DNA of 64,000 nt from Pseudomonadota bacterium (GTDB lineage: Bacteria; Pseudomonadota; Gammaproteobacteria; SURF-13): positions 11,800 through 75,799 of the forward strand of contig JAQBXX010000003.1 in NCBI GenBank assembly GCA_027624315.1. The letters are read 5' to 3'. The translations under genes were made by a program, and so were the position numbers. Positions 3,352 through 61,492 of this stretch are shown here, in pieces. The notes under the pieces were generated by a model. The model saw only the letters and a list, made by a program, of their open reading frames with translations. It was not told the DNA's origin and ran no database searches. The stretch's first letter is position 1. Each line of letters starts with the position of its first letter.

Positions 3352-4395
3352 ATGGATATGCTGAGCACATTCTGGACCACAGTACCTGTCACGCTGCAAA
3401 TCGTGATCCAGATTCTGGCGATTGTGTTGCCCTTGTCACTTGCGGTGGCCTACCTCACGCTGGCTGAGCGCAAGGTGATTGGCTACATTCAGGCGCGCAT
3501 CGGGCCCAATCGCGTGGGCCCGCGCGGTTGGCTACAGCCCATCGCCGACGGCATCAAGCTCCTCATGAAGGAGGTGATTATTCCCTCCGGTGCCAGCCGC
3601 GCACTGTTCATCATCGGGCCGATCTTGTCGCTTGTGCCCGCACTCATCGCCTGGGCGGTGATACCGTTCGACGACACACTGGTGCTCTCCGACATTAACG
3701 CGGGGCTATTGTACATCATGGCAGTCACCTCGATGGGCGTATACGGCGTCATCATTGCGGGCTGGGCCTCCAATTCAAAATATGCGTTTCTGGGTGCGAT
3801 GCGCTGTGCGGCACAGATCGTGTCTTACGAAATCGCCATGGGCTTCGCGCTCGTCGGGGTATTGATCGCGGCAGGCAGCCTCAATCTGGGCGACATCGTA
3901 CGCGCGCAATCGGGGAGCCTGGCGCACTGGTTCTGGTTGCCGCTGCTGCCGTTGTTCCTGATTTACTTCATTGCCGGCGTGGCGGAAACCAACCGCGCAC
4001 CGTTCGACGTCGCCGAGGGCGAGTCGGAAATCGTGGCCGGATTTCATGTCGAGTACTCCGGCATGACCTTCGCGGTGTTCTTTCTCGCCGAATATGCCAA
4101 CATGATTCTGGTTTCAGCGCTGGCCGCGCTGATGTTTTTGGGCGGTTGGCTGTCGCCGTTTCAGGGCATTCCCCTGCTTCAGGGGCTGTTTGCCTGGGTA
4201 CCTGGCATCATCTGGTTGCTGCTGAAAATCTCCGTGCTGCTGTTTCTGTTTTTATGGTTCCGCGCCACCTTCCCGCGCTATCGTTACGACCAGATCATGC
4301 GCCTAGGCTGGAAGGTGTTCATTCCCATCACTATCGTATGGTTGCTGGTGGTGGGTGTCGCCGTGCTTTATAAACTGCCATGGTGGTTTGACTGA
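3352..4395 (+). CDS. nuoH: NADH-quinone oxidoreductase subunit H
   Basis: 347 aa polytopic membrane protein with NuoH/ND1-like sequence; operon position. Confidence 0.93.
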
Positions 4396-14354: not shown

Positions 14355-14429
14355 GCGGGAATAGCTCAGTGGTAGAGCACAACCTTGCCAAGGTTGGGGT
14401 CGCGAGTTCGAATCTCGTTTCCCGCTCCA
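14355..14429 (+). tRNA. glyW: tRNA-Gly (anticodon GCC)
   Basis: GCGGGAATAGCTCAGTGGTAGAGCA...CTTGCCAAGG...GGTTCGAATCT...CCCGCTCCA; cloverleaf by eye; anticodon loop ctGCCaa. Confidence 0.93.
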
Positions 14430-14448
14430 TAATTCAATGATTCAGCAC

Positions 14449-14522
14449 GGCTGGGTGGCAGAGTGGTCATGCAGCGGCCTGCAAAGCCGTGTACGCCGGT
14501 TCGATTCCGACCTCAGCCTCCA
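14449..14522 (+). tRNA. cysT: tRNA-Cys (anticodon GCA)
   Basis: GGCTGGGTGGCAGAGTGGTCATGCA...CCTGCAAAG...GGTTCGATTCCG...CAGCCTCCA; anticodon loop ctGCAaa. Confidence 0.92.
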
Positions 14523-14550
14523 TTATCCCTCGCTATTACCCTCTCATAAT

Positions 14551-14637
14551 GCCCGGGTGGCGGAATTGGTAGACGCAAGGGACTTAAAATCCCTCGGCCT
14601 CACGGCTGTGCCGGTTCGATTCCGGCCCCGGGCACCA
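14551..14637 (+). tRNA. leuZ: tRNA-Leu (anticodon TAA), long variable arm
   Basis: GCCCGGGTGGCGGAATTGGTAGACGC...CTTAAAATC... variable arm ...GGTTCGATTCCGGCCCCGGGCACCA; 87 nt. Confidence 0.92.
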
Positions 14638-15919: not shown

Positions 15920-16126
15920 TCAAATGTAAGGCCTGACCCTAGTGTTTCTGACCCTAGTGTTTCTAGTAGTAGTGTTTCTAGTTTCTAGTGTTTCTAGTAG
16001 TGTTTCTAGTAGTGTTTCTAGTGTTTCTAGTGTTTCACGTAGTGTTTCACGCGGGATGGTTTTGCATTCGTGTTGCAGCAGTGAGTCTGCCTCCTTGCCC
16101 AGGAGTTGGCTGATGCGGTCGATCAT
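15920..16126 (-). CDS. Hypothetical 68-aa ORF whose C-terminal two thirds are encoded by the tandem repeat (…RETLRETLETLETLLETLLETLETRNTTTRNT…)
   Basis: ATG at 16126 preceded by GAGG 7 nt upstream; non-repeat N-terminus MIDRISQLLGKEADSLLQHECKTIP; may be spurious. Confidence 0.25.
   Translation of the reverse strand: MIDRISQLLGKEADSLLQHECKTIPRETLRETLETLETLLETLLETLETRNTTTRNTRVRNTRVRPYI
15934..16050. repeat. Degenerate tandem repeat array, ~10 units of (TAG)n-TGTTTC / GACCCTAGTGTTTC (7-15 nt units)
   Basis: Direct reading: tgaccctagtgtttc x2, tagtagtagtgtttc, tagtttc, tagtgtttc, tagtagtgtttc x2, tagtgtttc x2, acgtagtgtttc. Confidence 0.9.
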
Positions 16127-24447: not shown

Positions 24448-24557
24448 TTACTCAGGAGACACAAAGTATGGATACACGCTGCCCAAGTGTCTCCTGAGTA
24501 AAAACAGTATTAACCCTACCCCCACCCTGTCCCGCCCCCTAAACAGGGGGCGGGGAC
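24448..24557 (+). repeat. Double-hairpin intergenic repeat element, family 1, copy A
   Basis: 15-bp perfect stem ttactcaggagacac/gtgtctcctgagtaa (loop 24 nt) followed by GC-rich hairpin gtcccgccccct/agggggcggggac; near-identical inverted copy at 30676-30786. Confidence 0.85.
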
Positions 24558-24614
24558 GTGTCGGAGAGTGCATCCTTGATAATAAACTCATGCGTAACCA
24601 GCCGCTGACGGAGT

Positions 24615-26317: not shown

Positions 26318-27061
26318 TCACGCCATATACATGCCGCCGTTCACGTGCAGCGTCTCGCCGGTGATGTAACCCGCCGGCGGCGAGGCCAGGAAGGCCACCA
26401 CGGCGGCGATCTCCTCCACGCTGCCCAGGCGCTTGAGCGGTATCTGCTGTAACAGCGCGGTGCGTTGATCCTCCGGCAGTGCACGCGTCATGTCAGTGTC
26501 GATAAACCCCGGGGCGACCGCGTTCACGGTGATGCCGCGCGACCCCACCTCGCGCGCCAGCGCCTTGGTAAAGCCGAGGATACCGGCCTTGGCAGCGGCA
26601 TAATTGGTCTGCCCCGCATTACCGGCGGCGCCCACCACCGACGAGATGCTGATGATGCGCCCACGCCGCGCCTTCATCATCGCGGGGAGGCACGCCTTGG
26701 ACAGACGATACACCGAGTTCAGGTTGGTGGCGATGATCTCCTCCCAATCGCTGTCCTGCATGCGCATGAGCAGGCCGTCACGGGTGATACCTGCGTTGTT
26801 GACCAGGATGGAGGGTGCGCCGAAGGCCGGCTCTACCGCGGCGAGCAGCGCCGCTACCGACGCCGGATCGGTCACGTTGAGTATGCATCCTGTACCTTTA
26901 ATTTCTTTATTTTTCAATATATTGCTTATTGAATCTGCACCACTTTGTGAAGTTGCGGTGCCAATGACCACCGCCCCCTGCCGCCCCAATTCAAGGGCAA
27001 TGGCCTGGCCGATACCGCGGCTTGCGCCGGTCACCAGGGCGACTTCGTTACTTAAACTCAT
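26318..27061 (-). CDS. fabG: 3-oxoacyl-ACP reductase
   Basis: 247 aa SDR; TGASRGIG, YAAAKAG motifs. Confidence 0.95.
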   Translation of the reverse strand: MSLSNEVALVTGASRGIGQAIALELGRQGAVVIGTATSQSGADSISNILKNKEIKGTGCILNVTDPASVAALLAAVEPAFGAPSILVNNAGITRDGLLMRMQDSDWEEIIATNLNSVYRLSKACLPAMMKARRGRIISISSVVGAAGNAGQTNYAAAKAGILGFTKALAREVGSRGITVNAVAPGFIDTDMTRALPEDQRTALLQQIPLKRLGSVEEIAAVVAFLASPPAGYITGETLHVNGGMYMA

Positions 27062-28008
27062 GCGGGTTCTCCTTCTTGTGTCACGGCGGCAAGTGCTGCG
27101 GCTAGTGTCGCCGGATCATACAGCGGCAGCGTCTTCATCTCCGGCGCGATGCGCTTGTTCAGGCCCGCGAGCACCTTGCCCGGCCCGCATTCGACCAGCA
27201 CGTCCACGCCTTTCTGCGCCAGCGCCTGAATCACCTCGACCCAACGCACGGGCTGGTACAACTGGCGCGTGAGTCCGTCGCGGATGGACGCAGCGTCTCT
27301 GTAGGCCGCGGCATCGACGTTATTTATTACAGGAATACGCGGCGTCTGAAGCGAAGTATTGCGCAGGCGCTCACCGAGGTGCTCCGCCGCAGGCCGCATC
27401 AATGCACAGTGCGATGGCACGCTCACCGGCAACAGCAGCGCGCGTTTGGCGCCCGCCTGTTTGGCGAGTTCCAGCGCACGCGCGACGGCGGCGCTCTCCC
27501 CCGCCACCACCACCTGCCCCGGTGAATTGAAATTGACCGCTTCGACCACCACCCCCTGCGCGGCCTCGGCGCACACGGCGCGCACCTTGGCGTCATCGAG
27601 GCCGAGGATCGCTGCCATGGCACCGCTGCCTTCCGCCACCGCCGCCTGCATGAATTCGCCGCGCCGGGCGACGAGATCGATGGCGCTGCCAAACTCCAGC
27701 GCCCCGGCGCAGACCAGCGCCGTGTACTCGCCCAGGCTGTGACCCGCCAGATATGCGGGCTGCGCTCCTCCGCGCGCCTGCCAGACGCGCCAGGCGGCGA
27801 CACCGGCGGCGAGCATCGCGGGCTGCGTTTTGCAGGTGAGATTCAAGTCCGTTTCCGGACCCTGTTGCACCAGCGCCCACAGGTCATAGCCCAGCACGCG
27901 CGAGGCCTCGGCGTACGTCGCCTCTATCTCTGCATGGCTCTGCGCCAGTTCCGCCAGCATGCCGATGGACTGCGAACCCTGGCCGGGGAAGACAAATGCG
28001 AGCGTCAT
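27058..28008 (-). CDS. fabD: Malonyl-CoA-ACP transacylase
   Basis: 316 aa; GHSLGEY active site. Confidence 0.95.
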   Translation of the reverse strand: MTLAFVFPGQGSQSIGMLAELAQSHAEIEATYAEASRVLGYDLWALVQQGPETDLNLTCKTQPAMLAAGVAAWRVWQARGGAQPAYLAGHSLGEYTALVCAGALEFGSAIDLVARRGEFMQAAVAEGSGAMAAILGLDDAKVRAVCAEAAQGVVVEAVNFNSPGQVVVAGESAAVARALELAKQAGAKRALLLPVSVPSHCALMRPAAEHLGERLRNTSLQTPRIPVINNVDAAAYRDAASIRDGLTRQLYQPVRWVEVIQALAQKGVDVLVECGPGKVLAGLNKRIAPEMKTLPLYDPATLAAALAAVTQEGEPA

Positions 28009-28020
28009 AGTGTTCAGGCA

Positions 28021-28209
28021 CCTCTAAAAATGCGTCTTTTGCTCCAATACTGCGTTGCAGCTTGTCTCCGCTGCTCACATACTGGCGTGTATGCTGTGCT
28101 GCACATGGATGTGCGAATGTCGCGGGCGCAGGACGCGCAGGAGCGACCGCTGCTCGACGGCGCTGCGCCTTGTCTTGAAGCAAAATCCATCATTTTTAGA
28201 AACGCCCGC
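28021..28209 (+). mobile_element. MITE-like repeat, family 2, copy 1 (~189 bp, terminal inverted repeats CTCTAAAAATG.../...CATCATTTTTAGA)
   Basis: ~95% identical to 41000-41186; termini are reverse complements of each other; fills entire fabH-fabD intergenic spacer; no coding capacity. Confidence 0.85.
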
Positions 28210-29166
28210 TTAATACTTCAGCAACGCCGAGCCCCAGGTGAACCCCGCACCGAACGCCTCCAGCAGCAAGGTGTCGCCGCGCTGAATGCGGCCGTCGCGC
28301 ACGGCGGTGTCGAGCGCAAGCGGCACCGACGCGGCAGAGGTGTTGCCGTGCTTGTCCACGGTGACCACCACGCGCTCCATCGGCATGCCAAGTTTTTTGG
28401 CGGTGGCGCTGATGATGCGGATGTTGGCCTGATGTGGAATGAGCCAGTCCACATCGGATTTCTGCAGCTGATTCGCCGCCAGCGTTTCATCCACAATGCG
28501 GTCCAGCGTGTTCACCGCCATCTTGAAGACTTCATTACCCTGCATGGTGACATAGGCACCGCTCGGAGCGTCGGCGATATCCTCGGTGGTCAGTAAATGA
28601 TGGTAGTGCCCGTCGGCGTGCAGGTGCGTGGAGAGGATGCCCGGCTCGCTGTCCGCCTGCACGATCACCGCACCCGCACCGTCGCCGAACAAGACGCAGG
28701 TGTTGCGGTCCTTCCAGTCCACAATGCGTGAAAAAATCTCGGCCCCGACCACCAGGGCGCACTGCGTTGAACCGCTGCGGATGAATTTGTCGGCAATGCC
28801 CAGCGCATAGACGAATCCGGTGCACGCCGCCTGCACGTCAAACGCCGCGCCGCCGCGGATGCCCAGACGCTGCTGTAACAGGCACGCGGTGCTGGGAAAG
28901 AGTTTGTCGGGCGTGGTGGTGGCGACGATGATGAGATCAATGTCCGCGGGCTGTATACTAGCCGCCGCTATGGCCTGGCGCGCGGCGTGCTCGGCGAGAT
29001 CGCAGGTGGTTTCCTCTGCGGCTGCAATGTGGCGCTCACGAATGCCGGTGCGTTCGACGATCCACGCATCCGAGGTCTCCACCATCTTTTCGAGATCGGC
29101 GTTGGTCAGTATCTTGTGCGGCAGATAACCGCCGGTGCCGCGAATGCGCGCGTAGGGATTGTTCAC
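28210..29166 (-). CDS. fabH: 3-oxoacyl-ACP synthase III
   Basis: 318 aa; KAS III motifs (CTGF..., HQAN). Confidence 0.95.
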
Positions 29167-30614: not shown

Positions 30615-30675
30615 GAGCGTGCTCCCTGTTGGGTATTACTGATAAGTCAATAAATAAGCCTACACTTTCCGCTAC

Positions 30676-30786
30676 GTCCCCACCCCCTGTGCAGGGGGCG
30701 GGACAGGGTGGGGGTAGGTAAAACAGTGTCTTTACTCAGGAGTCACATCATTCACATTGTCGCCTTACTTTGTGACTCCTGAGTAA
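30676..30786 (-). repeat. Double-hairpin intergenic repeat element, family 1, copy B (inverted relative to copy A)
   Basis: 16-bp perfect stem ttactcaggagtcaca/tgtgactcctgagtaa plus GC-rich hairpin gtccccaccccct...agggggcgggac; reverse complement aligns to 24448-24557. Confidence 0.85.
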
Positions 30787-30798
30787 TCAATAACGGTG

Positions 30799-39841: not shown

Positions 39842-40017
39842 GCCAGCTCTTCGCTCTGCAGGCGCCGCGCCTCCTGCTCCAGCATCACCGGTATGTCATC
39901 ACGGATCGGGTACGCCAGCCGGTCCCACTTGCAGATGAGTTCTGCGGCGGATTTGTCATGCACCAGCGGCCCCTTGCACACAGGGCACACCAGGATATCA
40001 AGCAGTTTTGGGTCCAT
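39838..40017 (-). CDS. ycaR: Trm112/YcaR-family small zinc-ribbon protein (UPF0434)
   Basis: [18 protein letters not shown]... conserved YcaR start at 40017; track ORF extended to 40056. Confidence 0.8.
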
Positions 40018-40993
40018 GAGGAATTTTCTCCAGCAGTTCAAGTAATGCGGCGCCAAAGGCAGGATCGAGCTCCGCCGTGACGGGCAGGTACCAGTAATGG
40101 GGTCTGGCGAACGGTTTGCATTTTACCGCATCCTTCTCGGTCATGAACACGGTGCGGCCGTCATCAAAACGAAAATCCTGCTCCACAAAGCGGTAATGGT
40201 CAGGAAAGGCATGTTCTACCACACTGAGACCCAGCGCACGCAGTTGATTGAAAAATCGCACCGGATTGCCTATGGCGGCGACGGCGTGTACGGTCTCTCC
40301 GCTGAAGCTCTCGATGCCGCGCGTACGTGCCTCATCCGCCAGATTGCGCGCGGCGAGCGGCTGCAAGCGCATGGCGAATTCACCATCAGCTGCAACACCA
40401 CCATTGCACACCTTCATGTTCACCGTGCGCAATCGAGTGAGTGGTTCGCGCAGCGGCCCCGCCGGCAGGCAATGGCCGTTGCCGAAGCGGCGCGCACCGT
40501 CAATTACGGCGATTTCAATATCCCGCGCCAGCGCGTAATGCTGCAGGCCGTCATCGGCAATGATGATGTCACACGCAGGCAGCAGCGTACGCGCGGCAGC
40601 GACACGATGCGGCGCGATCATGACCGGACAAGCGCAGCGCAGCGCCAGCAACACCGCCTCGTCGCCCATCTGTGCCGGATCAGAATCGGGATGCACCGCC
40701 TGCGGATAGTATCGCGTCTTGCCGCCATAGCCACGGCTGATGATACCGGGTTTCCAGCCGCGCGCCTGCAAAAAATCCGCGAGCCAGATGACCAGCGGCG
40801 TTTTGCCGGTGCCGCCGGCGGTGATATTGCCCACCACGACGACCGGAGCAGCGATCTTGGTTACGCGCAACACCCCGCTGCGATACAGGCCGCGGCGTGC
40901 CAGGGTTAAGAGGCAGTACAGCCACGCAAGCGGCAACAGCAAAAACGAGAGAAAATTATGGCTATACCAATAGTGGTCCAGGCGCTTCATCAC
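39998..40993 (-). CDS. lpxK: Tetraacyldisaccharide 4'-kinase
   Basis: 331 aa; P-loop [12 protein letters not shown]; GTG 40993 / ATG 40990 start. Confidence 0.9.
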
Positions 40994-40999
40994 AGGACG

Positions 41000-41186
41000 C
41001 CTCTAAAAATGCGTCTTTTGCTCCAATACTGCGTTGCAGCTTGTCTCCGCTGCTCACATACTGACGTGTATGCTGTGCTGTACAAGGACGTACGAATGTC
41101 GCGGGCGCAGGACGCGCAGGAGCGACCGCTGCTCGCCTGCGCTGCGCCTTGTCTTGAAGCAAAATCCATCATTTTTAGAGACGCCC
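41000..41186 (+). mobile_element. MITE-like repeat, family 2, copy 2
   Basis: ~95% identical to 28021-28209, same orientation; fills entire msbA-lpxK spacer; right end abuts TTAA containing msbA stop codon; flanked by gacgcc direct repeat. Confidence 0.85.
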
Positions 41187-42983
41187 TTAAAGGGCGGAGG
41201 ACTCTGTCGCAGTCAACGTCTGCGCTGCGACATCTGCGGTATCGCGGAACTGCATCTTGTGCAGCGCGGCGTAGTGGCCGTTACGCGCCAGCAGTTCACT
41301 GTGCCTGCCCTGTTCGATGATGCGGCCGGCGTGCAGCACGATGATGATGTCCGCCTTCTCGATGGTGGAAAGGCGATGCGCAATCACCAGCGTGGTGCGC
41401 GAACGCATCAGGCGCTCGAGCCCGGCTTGGATGTAGCGCTCGGATTCCGTATCGAGCGACGAGGTCGCCTCATCGAGAATCAGGATGGGCGCGTTTTTCA
41501 GCAGTGCGCGCGCTATCGCCAGGCGCTGACGCTGCCCGCCGGAAAGCAGCACGCCATTCTCGCCCACCAGCGTATTCAGCCCTTGCGGCAATGGGCGGAT
41601 AAACTCCATCGCGTGCGCGGCCTCGGCGGCCTCGATGATGTCGTGTTCGCTCGCAGTCCCGAGCCGGCCGTAGGCAATGTTGTGCGCTATCGTATCGTTG
41701 AACAGCGTCACCTCCTGGCTCACCAGCGCGATCTGGTCGCGCAGATCGGCAAGCCGCAGGTCGCGGATATCGCAGCCGTCGAGCGTGATGCTGCCGCTGC
41801 TGATGTTATAGAAACGCGGCAGCAGGCTGACCAAGGTGGATTTGCCGCTACCGGAACGGCCCACCAGCGCGACGGTCTGGCCCGGCTGCACCTTGAAACT
41901 GATGTCGTGCAGCACCTCGCCCTTGCGCTCGTCATAACTGAACGAGACCTGCCGGTATTCAATCGCACCTGCTGCGCGCGCGAGACTGCGCGTACCGGTA
42001 TCCGGTTCGGCGGCGCTGTCGATAAACGAGAAGATGCTCTCCGCGGCGGCAATGCCCCGCTGTATGGTGGCGTTGATGGTGGTGATGCGTTTCATGGGCC
42101 CGAGCATGAGTACCATGGCGGCGACAAACGACATGAAGCTACCCACGCTGACAGAGGCCAACATCGAATCCCGCGTAGCGAGGTAGACAATACCGGCCAG
42201 CGCGCTGGCCGTTACCAGCTGGACCAGAGAAGTGCTCGCGGCCGATGTCGCCGTCATCTTCATGTTCAGGTGACGGTTGGCCTCACTGGTACGCTCAAAC
42301 TGAGTGGCCTCATAGCGCTGCGCACCGAATATCTTAACCACGCGTTGCGCACCTATCGCCTCCTCCGCGACATGCGTAATGTTGCCCATGGAATGCTGGA
42401 TACGCGTGCTGATGCGACGGAACCGCCGGTTGATATAGAGCACCAGAAATGCGATGAACGGCCCGGTCAACAGGAACACCAGTGCCAGCAAGGCATTAAG
42501 ATAAAGCATCCACGCGACAAGACCCACCACCGTCAGCGTATCCTTCACAATCACGGTGATGGCGCTGGTCGATGCCTGTGCCACTTGCTCCACATCGTAG
42601 ATCAACTTCGACAGCAACTGGCCGGAGGAGTTATTGTCGTAAAACGCAGCCGGCAACAGCAGCAAGTGATTAAACATCAGGTCGCGCAAGTCGTTCACCA
42701 CCTTGCGTCCCATCCACGACAAGCCATAGGTGGATATGAATTCAGCGATGCCGCGCACCAGAAAAAGGCCGACCAGCCACAGCGGCATCATGCGTATGAT
42801 GGCCGGGTCATTGGCGACGAAACTGCCATCGGCGAGTGGCTTTATCAGCGCCGCGAAGCCCGTTTCCGTGGCGGCAAAAACCACCATCGCCAGTGTCGCG
42901 ACGACAAAGGCCTTCCAGTAAGGCATGGCATAGCGCAGCAGCCGCCGATACACGGCGAAGCCGCTAACATTACTCATGGCCAC
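41187..42983 (-). CDS. msbA: Lipid A export ABC transporter permease/ATPase MsbA
   Basis: 598 aa; 6-TM exporter domain + ABC signature LSGGQRQR, Walker A GRSGSGKST. Confidence 0.92.
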   Translation of the reverse strand: MAMSNVSGFAVYRRLLRYAMPYWKAFVVATLAMVVFAATETGFAALIKPLADGSFVANDPAIIRMMPLWLVGLFLVRGIAEFISTYGLSWMGRKVVNDLRDLMFNHLLLLPAAFYDNNSSGQLLSKLIYDVEQVAQASTSAITVIVKDTLTVVGLVAWMLYLNALLALVFLLTGPFIAFLVLYINRRFRRISTRIQHSMGNITHVAEEAIGAQRVVKIFGAQRYEATQFERTSEANRHLNMKMTATSAASTSLVQLVTASALAGIVYLATRDSMLASVSVGSFMSFVAAMVLMLGPMKRITTINATIQRGIAAAESIFSFIDSAAEPDTGTRSLARAAGAIEYRQVSFSYDERKGEVLHDISFKVQPGQTVALVGRSGSGKSTLVSLLPRFYNISSGSITLDGCDIRDLRLADLRDQIALVSQEVTLFNDTIAHNIAYGRLGTASEHDIIEAAEAAHAMEFIRPLPQGLNTLVGENGVLLSGGQRQRLAIARALLKNAPILILDEATSSLDTESERYIQAGLERLMRSRTTLVIAHRLSTIEKADIIIVLHAGRIIEQGRHSELLARNGHYAALHKMQFRDTADVAAQTLTATESSAL

Positions 42984-43010
42984 TCCAGTTTAGAGGCACC
43001 CATGCACACT

Positions 43011-44056: not shown

Positions 44057-44241
44057 GTTGCGTTACCTGCACCTTACGTGTGGGATGTGGTGGCTATTGT
44101 AGTATATCTTTAACATAGTGACATAAATCGTAGCGAGCGGCTTTCAGGCGGGGGCGGTGGAGCGCAGGAACCGGAGTGTACATAGAAGTACATGAGGATT
44201 CCGAGCACCGCACGCACCCGCATCAAAGACGCGCAGTAGAT

Positions 44242-61037: not shown

Positions 61038-61397
61038 TTATGTTTTGCGAATGGCTTTGCGCGGACCCTTGCGTGTACGCGCGTTGGTGCGGGTGCGCTG
61101 TCCACGCACCGGAAGACCGCGGCGATGACGCAGACCGCGATAGCAGCCGAGGTCCATCAGGCGCTTGATGCTCATCGACACCTCGCGGCGCAGATCGCCT
61201 TCGACCCTGAGCTTCGCCACTTCAGCGCGAAGCGCTTCGACCTGTGCCTCGGTCAGGCTCTTGATCTTGATATGGGGATCAACATGCGCTGCCGCACAAA
61301 TGGCCTGCGCACGGGTATGTCCGATTCCGTAGATTGACGTTAACGCAATCACGGTATGCTTCTGGACTGGAATATTTATGCCTGCAATACGTGCCAT
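61038..61397 (-). CDS. rpsM: 30S ribosomal protein S13
   Basis: 119 aa; [10 protein letters not shown]. Confidence 0.97.
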
Positions 61398-61492
61398 TCA
61401 ACCATTCTCGCTCTGAGTAATAACACCCTTGAAAAACCAGTCAGTATACGCACTCAGGTAGCAATAATCAAACTATCTGCTATCTGCCGCGC

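Follow-up and report, generated by a model that had tools for sequence, protein, structure and literature searches.

Tips of a small transposon family may donate ribosome-binding sites at operon junctions in uncultured Gammaproteobacteria

The 64,000-nucleotide stretch analyzed here (the window; contig JAQBXX010000003.1, positions 11,800 to 75,799 of the forward strand, assembly GCA_027624315.1, a Pseudomonadota bacterium of the gammaproteobacterial lineage SURF-13) carries two copies of a repeat between genes of lipid and lipopolysaccharide (LPS) operons. Copy 1 separates fabH from fabD, and copy 2 separates an msbA-like ABC exporter gene from lpxK. Our direct-repeat search of the window returned a single 187-nt family with exactly two members (28021-28207 and 41000-41186; 96% identical), and the consensus of the wider family pushes both element ends 5 nt further, to 192 nt each on the minus strand (Table 1). 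The gene names proposed in an earlier note on this DNA agree with our gene calls and with Pfam and NCBIfam matches, which were obtained from (i) Pfam on an identical metagenome scaffold (ExbB, ExbD, ABC_membrane plus ABC_tran, LpxK, Trm112, and KdsB), (ii) matches on orthologous loci (PlsX, FabH, FabD, FabG, and AcpP), and (iii) NCBIfam equivalogs for fabD and lpxK. The note had also placed the repeat inside two operons; indeed, the flanking genes are co-directional, and their stop and start overlapped or lay 5-16 nt apart before insertion. Its view that the copies exactly fill both spacers needs a small correction, as the element takes up nearly the whole of each, namely 192 of 196 nt between msbA and lpxK and 192 of 201 nt between fabH and fabD. 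Likewise, the claimed abutment of the element end on the upstream TAA holds for copy 2 and fails for copy 1, where GC intervenes before the fabH stop.

In the mRNA sense, both copies end in ...CATTTTTAGAGG (also written ...CAUUUUUAGAGG), which contains a GAGG that resembles a Shine-Dalgarno (SD) sequence. Its distances to the lpxK and fabD ATG codons, 9 and 12 nt, reproduce those given earlier. Neither gene has any other SD-like motif at a distance that would work, in keeping with the note's proposal that the element supplies the ribosome-binding site (RBS). An alternative lpxK start exists as a GTG at 40993. The flanks of both copies read as degenerate target-site duplications (TSDs), namely TTAA/TGTG for copy 2 and AAGC/GAAC for copy 1.

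Table 1. Coordinates of the two elements, their parts, and their flanking genes in the window (TIR, terminal inverted repeat).
Feature	Position	Strand	Remarks
Element, copy 2	40995..41186	-	192 nt, long variant, between msbA stop and lpxK start; site empty in four close relatives
Element, copy 1	28016..28207	-	192 nt, between fabH stop and fabD start; shared with L013 and L147
Entry-side TIR arm, copy 2	41170..41186	-	mRNA sense GGGCGUCUCUAAAAAUG; anti-SD-like; predicted to pair with exit arm
Exit-side TIR arm, copy 2	40995..41011	-	mRNA sense CAUUUUUAGAGGCGUCC
SD-like GAGG, copy 2	41000..41003	-	9 nt before lpxK ATG; 6 nt before alternative GTG
SD-like GAGG, copy 1	28021..28024	-	12 nt before fabD ATG
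Nested 51-nt module, copy 2	41076..41126	-	GTCGCTCCTGCGCG...GTACAGCA; absent from the 141-nt form
Nested 51-nt module, copy 1	28097..28147	-	
Through-frame, copy 2	40990..41172	-	60 codons, from AUG in entry TIR; UGA overlaps lpxK AUG (UGAUG)
Through-frame, copy 1	28014..28193	-	59 codons; UGA ends 5 nt before fabD AUG
msbA-like ABC exporter	41187-42976	-	gene call plus Pfam/NCBIfam matches
msbA stop TAA	41187..41189	-	directly abuts copy 2; part of TTAA 41187-41190
lpxK	39998-40990	-	gene call plus Pfam/NCBIfam matches
lpxK ATG start	40988..40990	-	through-frame UGA (40990-40992) overlaps start as UGAUG
fabH	28210-29166	-	gene call plus Pfam/NCBIfam matches
fabH stop TAA	28210..28212	-	2 nt (GC) between stop and copy 1
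fabD	27058-28008	-	gene call plus Pfam/NCBIfam matches
fabD ATG start	28006..28008	-	NCBIfam fabD: residue 2 aligns to model position 2
Possible solo tip remnant GGGTGCCTCTAAACTG	42986..43001	-	between exbD stop and msbA start

To place the two copies in their family, one genome per species was scanned with a 26-mer from the inverted repeat. Among the 53 stretches returned, 43 lie in six metagenome-assembled genomes (MAGs) of uncultured Gammaproteobacteria (17, 11, 8, 5, 1, and 1; a lower bound), and the remaining matches are isolated and in AT-rich genomes; the chance expectation for the tip pattern is 0.00. BLAST and alignment of the copies put the family at 42 copies at least in the six MAGs. 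All counts below refer to 8-kb loci picked via this one conserved 26-mer, which misses divergent copies, and to genes called by a home-made caller, in which start codons other than ten checked ones are predictions. Some insertions are orthologous between MAGs, and hence non-independent (L023/L044, L027/L039, and window/L013/L147). The family consensus consists of GGGYRCCTCTAAAAATGATGGATTTTGCTTCAAGACAAGGCGCAGCGCAGGCGAGCAGCG followed by CAGCATACACGYYAGTATGTGAGCAGCGGAGACAAGCTGCAACGCAGTATTGGAGCAAAAGACGCATTTTTAGAGGYGCCC, with the nested module inserted at their boundary. Its TIR (GGGYRCCTCTAAAAATG ... CATTTTTAGAGGYGCCC) comprises 17 bp plus an inner 11-bp stem. The commonest form is 141 nt long, and others measure 84 (a deletion form), 135, 150, 192, 201, and 210 nt; a nested 51-nt module is carried by the 192-210-nt forms, to which both window copies belong as 192-nt forms. 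After tip refinement, a perfect 4-bp flanking duplication (TTAA, TAAA, ATAA, TGAA, TCAA, TACA, ACAT, GATA, ATCT, or TTTA) was found in 13 of 42 copies and at least three matching positions of four in 27 of 42, all of them AT-rich. No transposase is encoded, since the elements span 84-210 nt and their only open frames, of 42-70 codons, lack a codon-position signature. With its TIR, 4-bp TSD, many dispersed copies, and orthologous sites that are filled in some genomes and empty in others, the repeat is, by its sequence, a mobile non-autonomous DNA transposon, or MITE (miniature inverted-repeat transposable element), as the earlier note had called it.

No autonomous partner turned up, in that no inverted tip pair flanks a gene in the 8-kb loci and the plasmid and viral collections held nothing useful: the former gave a single 35-nt chance match and viral contigs gave three isolated tip matches. 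A plasmid or viral origin of the repeat likewise found no support in these collections. Rfam yielded no family at gathering thresholds, nor at E<=10 for the element; 5,426 E. coli genomes gave no match at megablast sensitivity; and the MITE reviews consulted (including PMC10969869 and PMC3184786) do not list the family. We regard the family as previously undescribed; it was found only in a small clade of uncultured Gammaproteobacteria.

The 51-nt module (GTCGCTCCTGCGCGTCCTGCGCCCGCGACATTCGTACGTCCTTGTACAGCA) was also seen at 4420-4470 of L035, at 4075-4124 and 4170-4220 of L027, at 1284-1335 of L047, and at 445-477 of L022. It occupies two internal MITE sites, after ..GCAGCG or ..GCAACG and followed by CAG, and occurs alone outside MITEs as well; its TCCTGCGCG unit is present in 2 to 4 copies. 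Its sequence suggests a mini-element that moves on its own and recognizes a specific target sequence. Elsewhere in the window, the exbD-msbA spacer contains GGGTGCCTCTAAACTG, an exact match to the first 13 nt of the tip consensus (estimated chance ~0.008 per window), followed by GGAG and then the msbA ATG; the matching stretch is perhaps what remains of a solo tip, or the footprint of an excision.

The position of the copies, rather than their orientation, is constrained. All but one of the 42 are intergenic. Between tandem genes, 14 copies have the orientation of the window copies vs 9 the opposite one, and a further 7 lie between divergent and 4 between convergent genes. Orientation is irrelevant because both consensus tips read TTTTTAGAGGYGCCC outward; the TIR is symmetric across the family, and GAGG is not tied to one orientation. 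The shared orientation of the two window copies on their minus-strand transcripts, remarked on in the earlier note, is therefore real and of no significance. To the note's question whether all genomic copies sit at stop/start junctions in one orientation, the family answers with a strongly constrained position and a free orientation. In 11 of 23 tandem copies, the upstream stop lies within -1 to +2 nt of the element. Contributing to this abutment are the stop codons included in such TSDs as TTAA, TAAA, and TGAA, and the TAG that a TSD ending in TA forms with the first G of the element. Further, copies are often at gene junctions because, in genomes of 60% GC, AT-rich tetranucleotides belong largely to stop codons and to spacers close to starts. 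On top of this target preference comes selection against insertions elsewhere, so both of the causes that had been offered as alternatives for the choice of junctions apply.

Close relatives, found by protein search and contig look-ups, preserve the sites without the element. Four of them, with LpxK homologs at 92, 89, 87, and 72% identity (L136, L138, L140, and L141), have an empty msbA-lpxK site with a one-base overlap of the two genes, reading ...CCCTATAATGAAG, ...CACTTTAATGAAG, ...TTCTTTGATGAAG, and ...CCGCTTGATGAAA (TAATG or TGATG), and no SD-like motif was found upstream of these four junctions. One of the empty-site contigs belongs to MAG JAURVQ01, which has at least 8 copies at other sites. 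It follows that copy 2 was inserted in one lineage only, and into a junction with translational coupling. Its most parsimonious history, to judge by the aligned junctions, would involve a TSD TTGA in ancestral CCCTTTGATGAAG, a change of TGA to TAA on the entry side, and, at the exit, the gain of 1 nt (TTGATG to TGTGATG). The fabH-fabD site is filled in the window, in L013 (MAG CAWUTX01), and in L147, and it is empty in L143, L145, and L148, where TGA and 16 nt, TAA and 5 nt, and TGA and 5 nt, respectively, precede the ATG. Copy 1, with degenerate, decayed junctions, is the older insertion; the empty-site comparison suggests that CCTGAAC after its GAGGTG is ancestral flank. Its exact TSD is not reconstructable, as the three empty sites differ among themselves.

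A metagenome scan for LpxK yielded only relatives of <=59% identity, in which the msbA-lpxK junction usually measures -11 to +40 nt. In four distant gammaproteobacterial relatives (L088, L093, L094, and L123), the msbA-lpxK spacers are 114-237 nt long and contain other palindromic repeats, and this junction may have been hit repeatedly by different small repeats. L136, the relative with 92% LpxK identity, offers a third case in this operon, with a variant element, GGGCGTCTCTAAAAATTCGATCAAGAC..., at 2654-2688, directly after the trm112 TGA, and its contig ends inside that element; L137 likewise has a variant element from 1514. In the window, trm112 and kdsB overlap as GTGA where L136 carries its variant.

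What the tips bring to these junctions is best seen in the family as a whole. Read outward, the consensus tip is UUUUUAGAGG(U/C)GCCC, with GAGG at both tips, and the 16S 3' tail contains CACCUC, the complement of GAGGUG. Genes that read outward and have their start no more than 60 nt away were seen at 38 element tips, ~20 of these genes <=13 nt from the tip. In particular, the starts of ProA, Map, FolA, RuvC, PurN, MoeB, HslV, MetW, FabD, and LpxK lie 1-10 nt outside a tip; their ten N-termini align to NCBIfam model positions 1-5, so these start calls are sound. The GAGG lies 6-15 nt from these ten starts, and the genes have no other SD because so short a distance to the tip leaves no room for one. 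Genes starting farther from tips carry a GGAG, AGGA, or GAGGA motif of their own. For comparison, an SD-like motif is present at -20 to -4 of 21 of the 57 window genes vs 8 of 57 in a control window. The best evidence at hand for the tip as an RBS, and the support for this role, is that housekeeping genes tolerate an insertion of 84-192 nt so close ahead of their start codons, at a distance of a few bases.

We consider it fairly probable that MITE tips donate an RBS to downstream genes, that insertions into essential operons thereby survive, and that the SD is unmasked by a ribosome terminating upstream. Insertion with a 4-bp duplication into AT-rich tetranucleotides often brings the element to gene junctions, where a gene 0-10 nt beyond either tip gains an SD motif at 5-15 nt. 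At msbA-lpxK, the insertion split an overlapping TGATG/TAATG junction lacking an SD, and at fabH-fabD a spacer of 5-16 nt; the GAGG of the element is now the sole plausible RBS for lpxK and fabD. We propose that the insertions in these operons survived because that GAGG serves as an RBS, which probably explains why insertions between essential lipid genes are tolerated. Both the use of GAGG for initiation and the manner of its unmasking are what we infer from such placements and from folding models.

As to unmasking, the TIRs are predicted to form the long hairpin that the earlier note had expected. Folding energies predicted for the sense RNA are -91.6 kcal/mol (z -5.45) for copy 2 and -84.7 kcal/mol (z -3.39) for copy 1, with GAGG inside the terminal stem in both predicted folds, such that pairing of the arms in the mRNA would mask the SD. 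We mimicked a terminating ribosome by keeping the mRNA between the upstream stop and +12 or +15 nt out of any pairing, and the probability that GAGG is unpaired, 0.000 (copy 2) and 0.043 (copy 1) in the partition function of the free RNA, rose to 0.31-0.33 (copy 2) and 0.29-0.53 (copy 1). A ribosome terminating at an abutting upstream stop may thus melt the entry arm, expose the SD, and bring translational coupling back; alternatively, RNase III might cut the long stem. The modelled behavior matches the mode of coupling known as 'RNA unfolding' (PMC12548453). Neither copy yielded a promoter-like or terminator-like site. An intrinsic terminator or attenuator, which would be marked by a GC-rich stem with a U-run directly after it, was rejected, as neither strand of either copy has a terminator-like site.

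The hairpin also carries a one-strand bias. The window copies depart from the TIR consensus six times, in every case by C to U in the mRNA sense with pairing kept as G.U, and for copy 2 the antisense fold is weaker by 15 kcal/mol. Across the family, G.U and A.C pairs in the terminal 17 bp number 20:2 in copies sense to host genes, 18:1 in antisense, 7:0 in divergent, and 6:0 in convergent copies. Among 24 copies of 141 nt, with 49 pairs each, 98.8% of the cells are paired on the canonical strand vs 90.1% on the other, and compensatory changes occur at three to five pair positions. Selection on the hairpin in host mRNA was rejected as the source of this bias, since copies antisense to host genes share it. 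From the alignments, the constraint appears to belong to the element itself, one particular strand of which has to fold. Possibly, transposition passes through a single-stranded stage, or the element has its own transcript; the bias hints that one given strand has to fold singly as the element propagates, which is unexpected for an element that makes target duplications.

Several observations weigh against RBS donation with coupled unmasking. In the models, the SD is fully masked in free RNA, where the motif would be useless without coupling or processing. L013 and L147 share the fabH-fabD insertion, and a 12-nt deletion has taken out AGAGGTGCCTGA in both; their fabD is intact and preceded by UUUUUACGCC-AUG without an SD, and GAGG is dispensable for fabD there, because its loss left the gene in place. 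By our own count, GAGG is conserved at ~16 of 21 start-adjacent tips vs ~74% of all tips, which is no excess, and no selection at the level of host mRNA is visible, because the G.U bias follows the strand of the element and not host transcription. The lost GAGG of L013 and L147, and the lack of extra conservation at start-adjacent tips, would suit selfish and neutral insertions, in which GAGG exists only through transposase recognition of GGGYRCCTCT and downstream translation is independent of it, resting for example on an A/U-rich leader; the empty junctions lack an SD too, which implies that these genes can be expressed without one when coupled. We nevertheless hold neutrality to be unlikely, since ten housekeeping genes lie 1-10 nt from a tip, where the insertion must have moved any SD of their own 84-192 nt away, SDs are present at genes more distant from tips, and termination-reinitiation coupling is not expected across 192 nt, its efficiency dropping with distance (PMC12548453). 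About equally doubtful is a primary role in RNA processing, in which RNase III would cut the ~30-bp interrupted TIR duplex, separate the cistrons into mRNAs of differing stability, and free the SD. The terminal stems are long and near-perfect on the canonical strand, the predicted folds are very stable, and there are precedents in RNase III cleavage at Correia TIRs (PMC10969869) and in the RNase E effects of ERIC (PMC3184786). However, antisense copies are about as frequent, despite hairpins that are weaker by a mean of 13 kcal/mol owing to A.C mismatches, and the sequence holds no RNase III-specific feature. To a conserved, immobile cis-regulatory RNA of the lipid operons (a leader, riboswitch, or attenuator) we give next to no credence, although both window copies do sit in lipid/LPS operons. 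Close relatives lack the element at both junctions, other copies adjoin unrelated genes (proA, map, folA, ruvC, purN, moeB, and hslV), TSDs are present, and neither an Rfam match at E<=10 nor a terminator-like site was found; this reading is refuted by the empty sites together with the distribution of the family.

Translation of the element itself deserves more weight, although we still rate it as rather improbable. An ATG at tip position 15 (AAAAATG), present on both strands, opens a frame that reaches the far tip, and a ribosome might re-initiate at this AUG, 14 nt inside the entry tip, and translate through the element, unwinding the hairpin and making a functionless peptide. The frame is stop-free in 33 of 42 copies on the canonical strand and in 41 of 42 on the reverse, with the other four frames closed nearly everywhere, and all structural length variants are multiples of three (84, 135, 141, 150, 192, 201, and 210; module 51; repeat unit 9 nt). 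Moreover, the stop of the frame overlaps the start codon (ATGA, GTGA, TTGA, TAATG, or TAGTG) in 13 of the 38 genes <=60 nt from a tip, where ~5.6 overlaps are expected from a 44% background stop frequency and one phase in three (binomial p = 0.002); the phase, d mod 3, equals 1 in 18 of these 38, the phases splitting 18:12:8. The reconstructed 1-nt exit insertion of copy 2 creates its UGAUG overlap, and mycobacterial MIRUs offer a precedent, as they insert at start codons with an internal open reading frame (ORF) coupled at -4 (PMC12548453). On the other hand, these tests are post hoc, on a small and partly non-independent sample, and the phase bias has p ~0.03-0.07 after removal of orthologous duplicates. 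Nine canonical-strand copies are closed by TGG to TGA, the reverse-strand ATG is missing in three copies, and the internal AUG lacks an SD and lies within the stem. Variable sites show no excess at third codon positions (10 of 38 variable columns; alignment A3, our own count), on which ground a functional peptide was rejected, and any relay function would thus lie in translation itself. Taken together, these features allow, at rather long odds, for a 'translation-transparent' transposon, with an entry AUG, an open frame, multiple-of-three lengths, and an exit SD in either orientation, across which ribosomes would be relayed from gene to gene.

Among known repeats, Correia elements (CREE/NEMIS) of Neisseria duplicate TA, whereas the present family duplicates 4 bp, and its TIR is presumably unrelated to that of Correia. 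The two have no sequence similarity, and where Correia gives promoters and an integration host factor (IHF) site, each tip of the present family has an SD, and its window copies yielded no promoter-like site. They resemble each other as gene-adjacent, co-transcribed MITEs (Correia ~100-160 bp) with long TIRs that form hairpins, with size classes formed by internal deletion, and with expression signals within the element (PMC10969869; PMC3184786). ERIC/IRU elements of Enterobacteriaceae are likewise imperfect-palindrome MITEs (~127 bp) in transcribed intergenic regions; unlike the present copies, they are flanked by TA, and RBS donation is not described for them. E. coli genomes carry ERIC, and for lack of any match in them at megablast sensitivity, we rejected the reading of the present repeat as ERIC or another enterobacterial repeat. 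Also excluded are REP/BIME/REPIN sequences, 20-40-nt GC-rich palindromes without a TSD that are mobilized by RAYT, since our element measures 84-210 nt and has a 4-bp TSD and AT-rich TIR cores. The orientation and position of ERIC affect mRNA stability via RNase E (PMC3184786). The Chunjie MITE of Geobacter uraniireducens is described as inserted into an operon without disruption of its structure, as preferring AT-rich targets, and as folding very stably, all as here, and differs from the present family in its 21-bp TIRs and 9-bp, rather than 4-bp, direct repeats (PMC3184786).

Neisseria REP2 is likewise a dispersed repeat, and it gives an RBS to the gene next to it (PMC3184786), as our family probably does. 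REP2 has no TIRs, carries a promoter, an RBS, and an ATG, and does not belong to the MITEs. MIRUs have neither TIR nor TSD and form tandem units in actinobacteria; the present copies are single, with TIR, TSD, SD, and hairpin, and occur in gammaproteobacterial MAGs. Both are short repeats at gene junctions in operons, and the internal ORF of MIRUs overlaps the downstream start (-4), which is thought to minimize their impact on expression (PMC12548453); for the similar stop/start overlap here (13 of 38 cases), the evidence is of a statistical, post hoc kind. In rpmI-rplT and in phages MS2 and f1, an SD is sequestered by a distant upstream segment and freed by translation of the upstream cistron (PMC12548453), as modelled here; those structures are host- or phage-evolved, whereas here, if the modelled folds hold, a transposon brings both halves of the helix. 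In behavior, the family is closest to Correia and ERIC, with co-transcribed TIR hairpins at junctions, and to Chunjie, with operon insertion. It is distinguished by an outward SD at both tips and a tip helix that would mask it, and it may further have a relay frame resembling that of MIRUs. The functions of MITEs given in the reviews consulted (promoters, IHF sites, RNase cleavage, gene inactivation, small RNAs, and terminators; among them PMC10969869) do not include RBS donation.

Other features of the window were recorded in passing. A second repeat family of ~140 nt has inverted copies at 24450-24600 (+) and 30615-30790 (-), ~80% identical, which bracket plsX-fabH-fabD-fabG-acpP-fabF; each copy comprises a 14-bp hairpin (TTACTCAGGAG.CAC...GTG.CTCCTGAGTAA) and then a second one rich in C/G (CCCGCCCCCT..AGGGGGCGGGG). 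At 15940-16050 (+), ~1.3 kb downstream of a three-tRNA cluster (14355-14634), GTTTCTAGT(AGT) units form an irregular tandem array with periods of 9-12 nt. Rfam matched the Xanthomonas small RNA sX9 at 44119-44193 (-), upstream of exbB-exbD-msbA-lpxK (46.8 bits; gathering threshold 44), and Alpha_RBS, the alpha-operon leader and an ordinary feature, at 61365-61468 (-; 45 bits, gathering threshold 38).

Overlapping or tight junctions of essential operons would be expected to be nearly untouchable for an insertion of 140-190 bp. The junctions described here, with their matched empty sites, are natural experiments indicating that such places are habitable for a transposon that carries translation-initiation signals of its own, and the element may also preserve translational coupling. 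Its strand-specific structural constraint may in addition inform how such MITEs move. If either the relay or the unmasking holds true, the element would offer a compact, portable 'coupling-preserving spacer' for synthetic operons and a testable model of long-distance coupling. Were the relay in particular to hold, it would let the element colonize overlapping stop/start junctions of essential operons, and would make this family the TIR-transposon counterpart of mycobacterial MIRUs.

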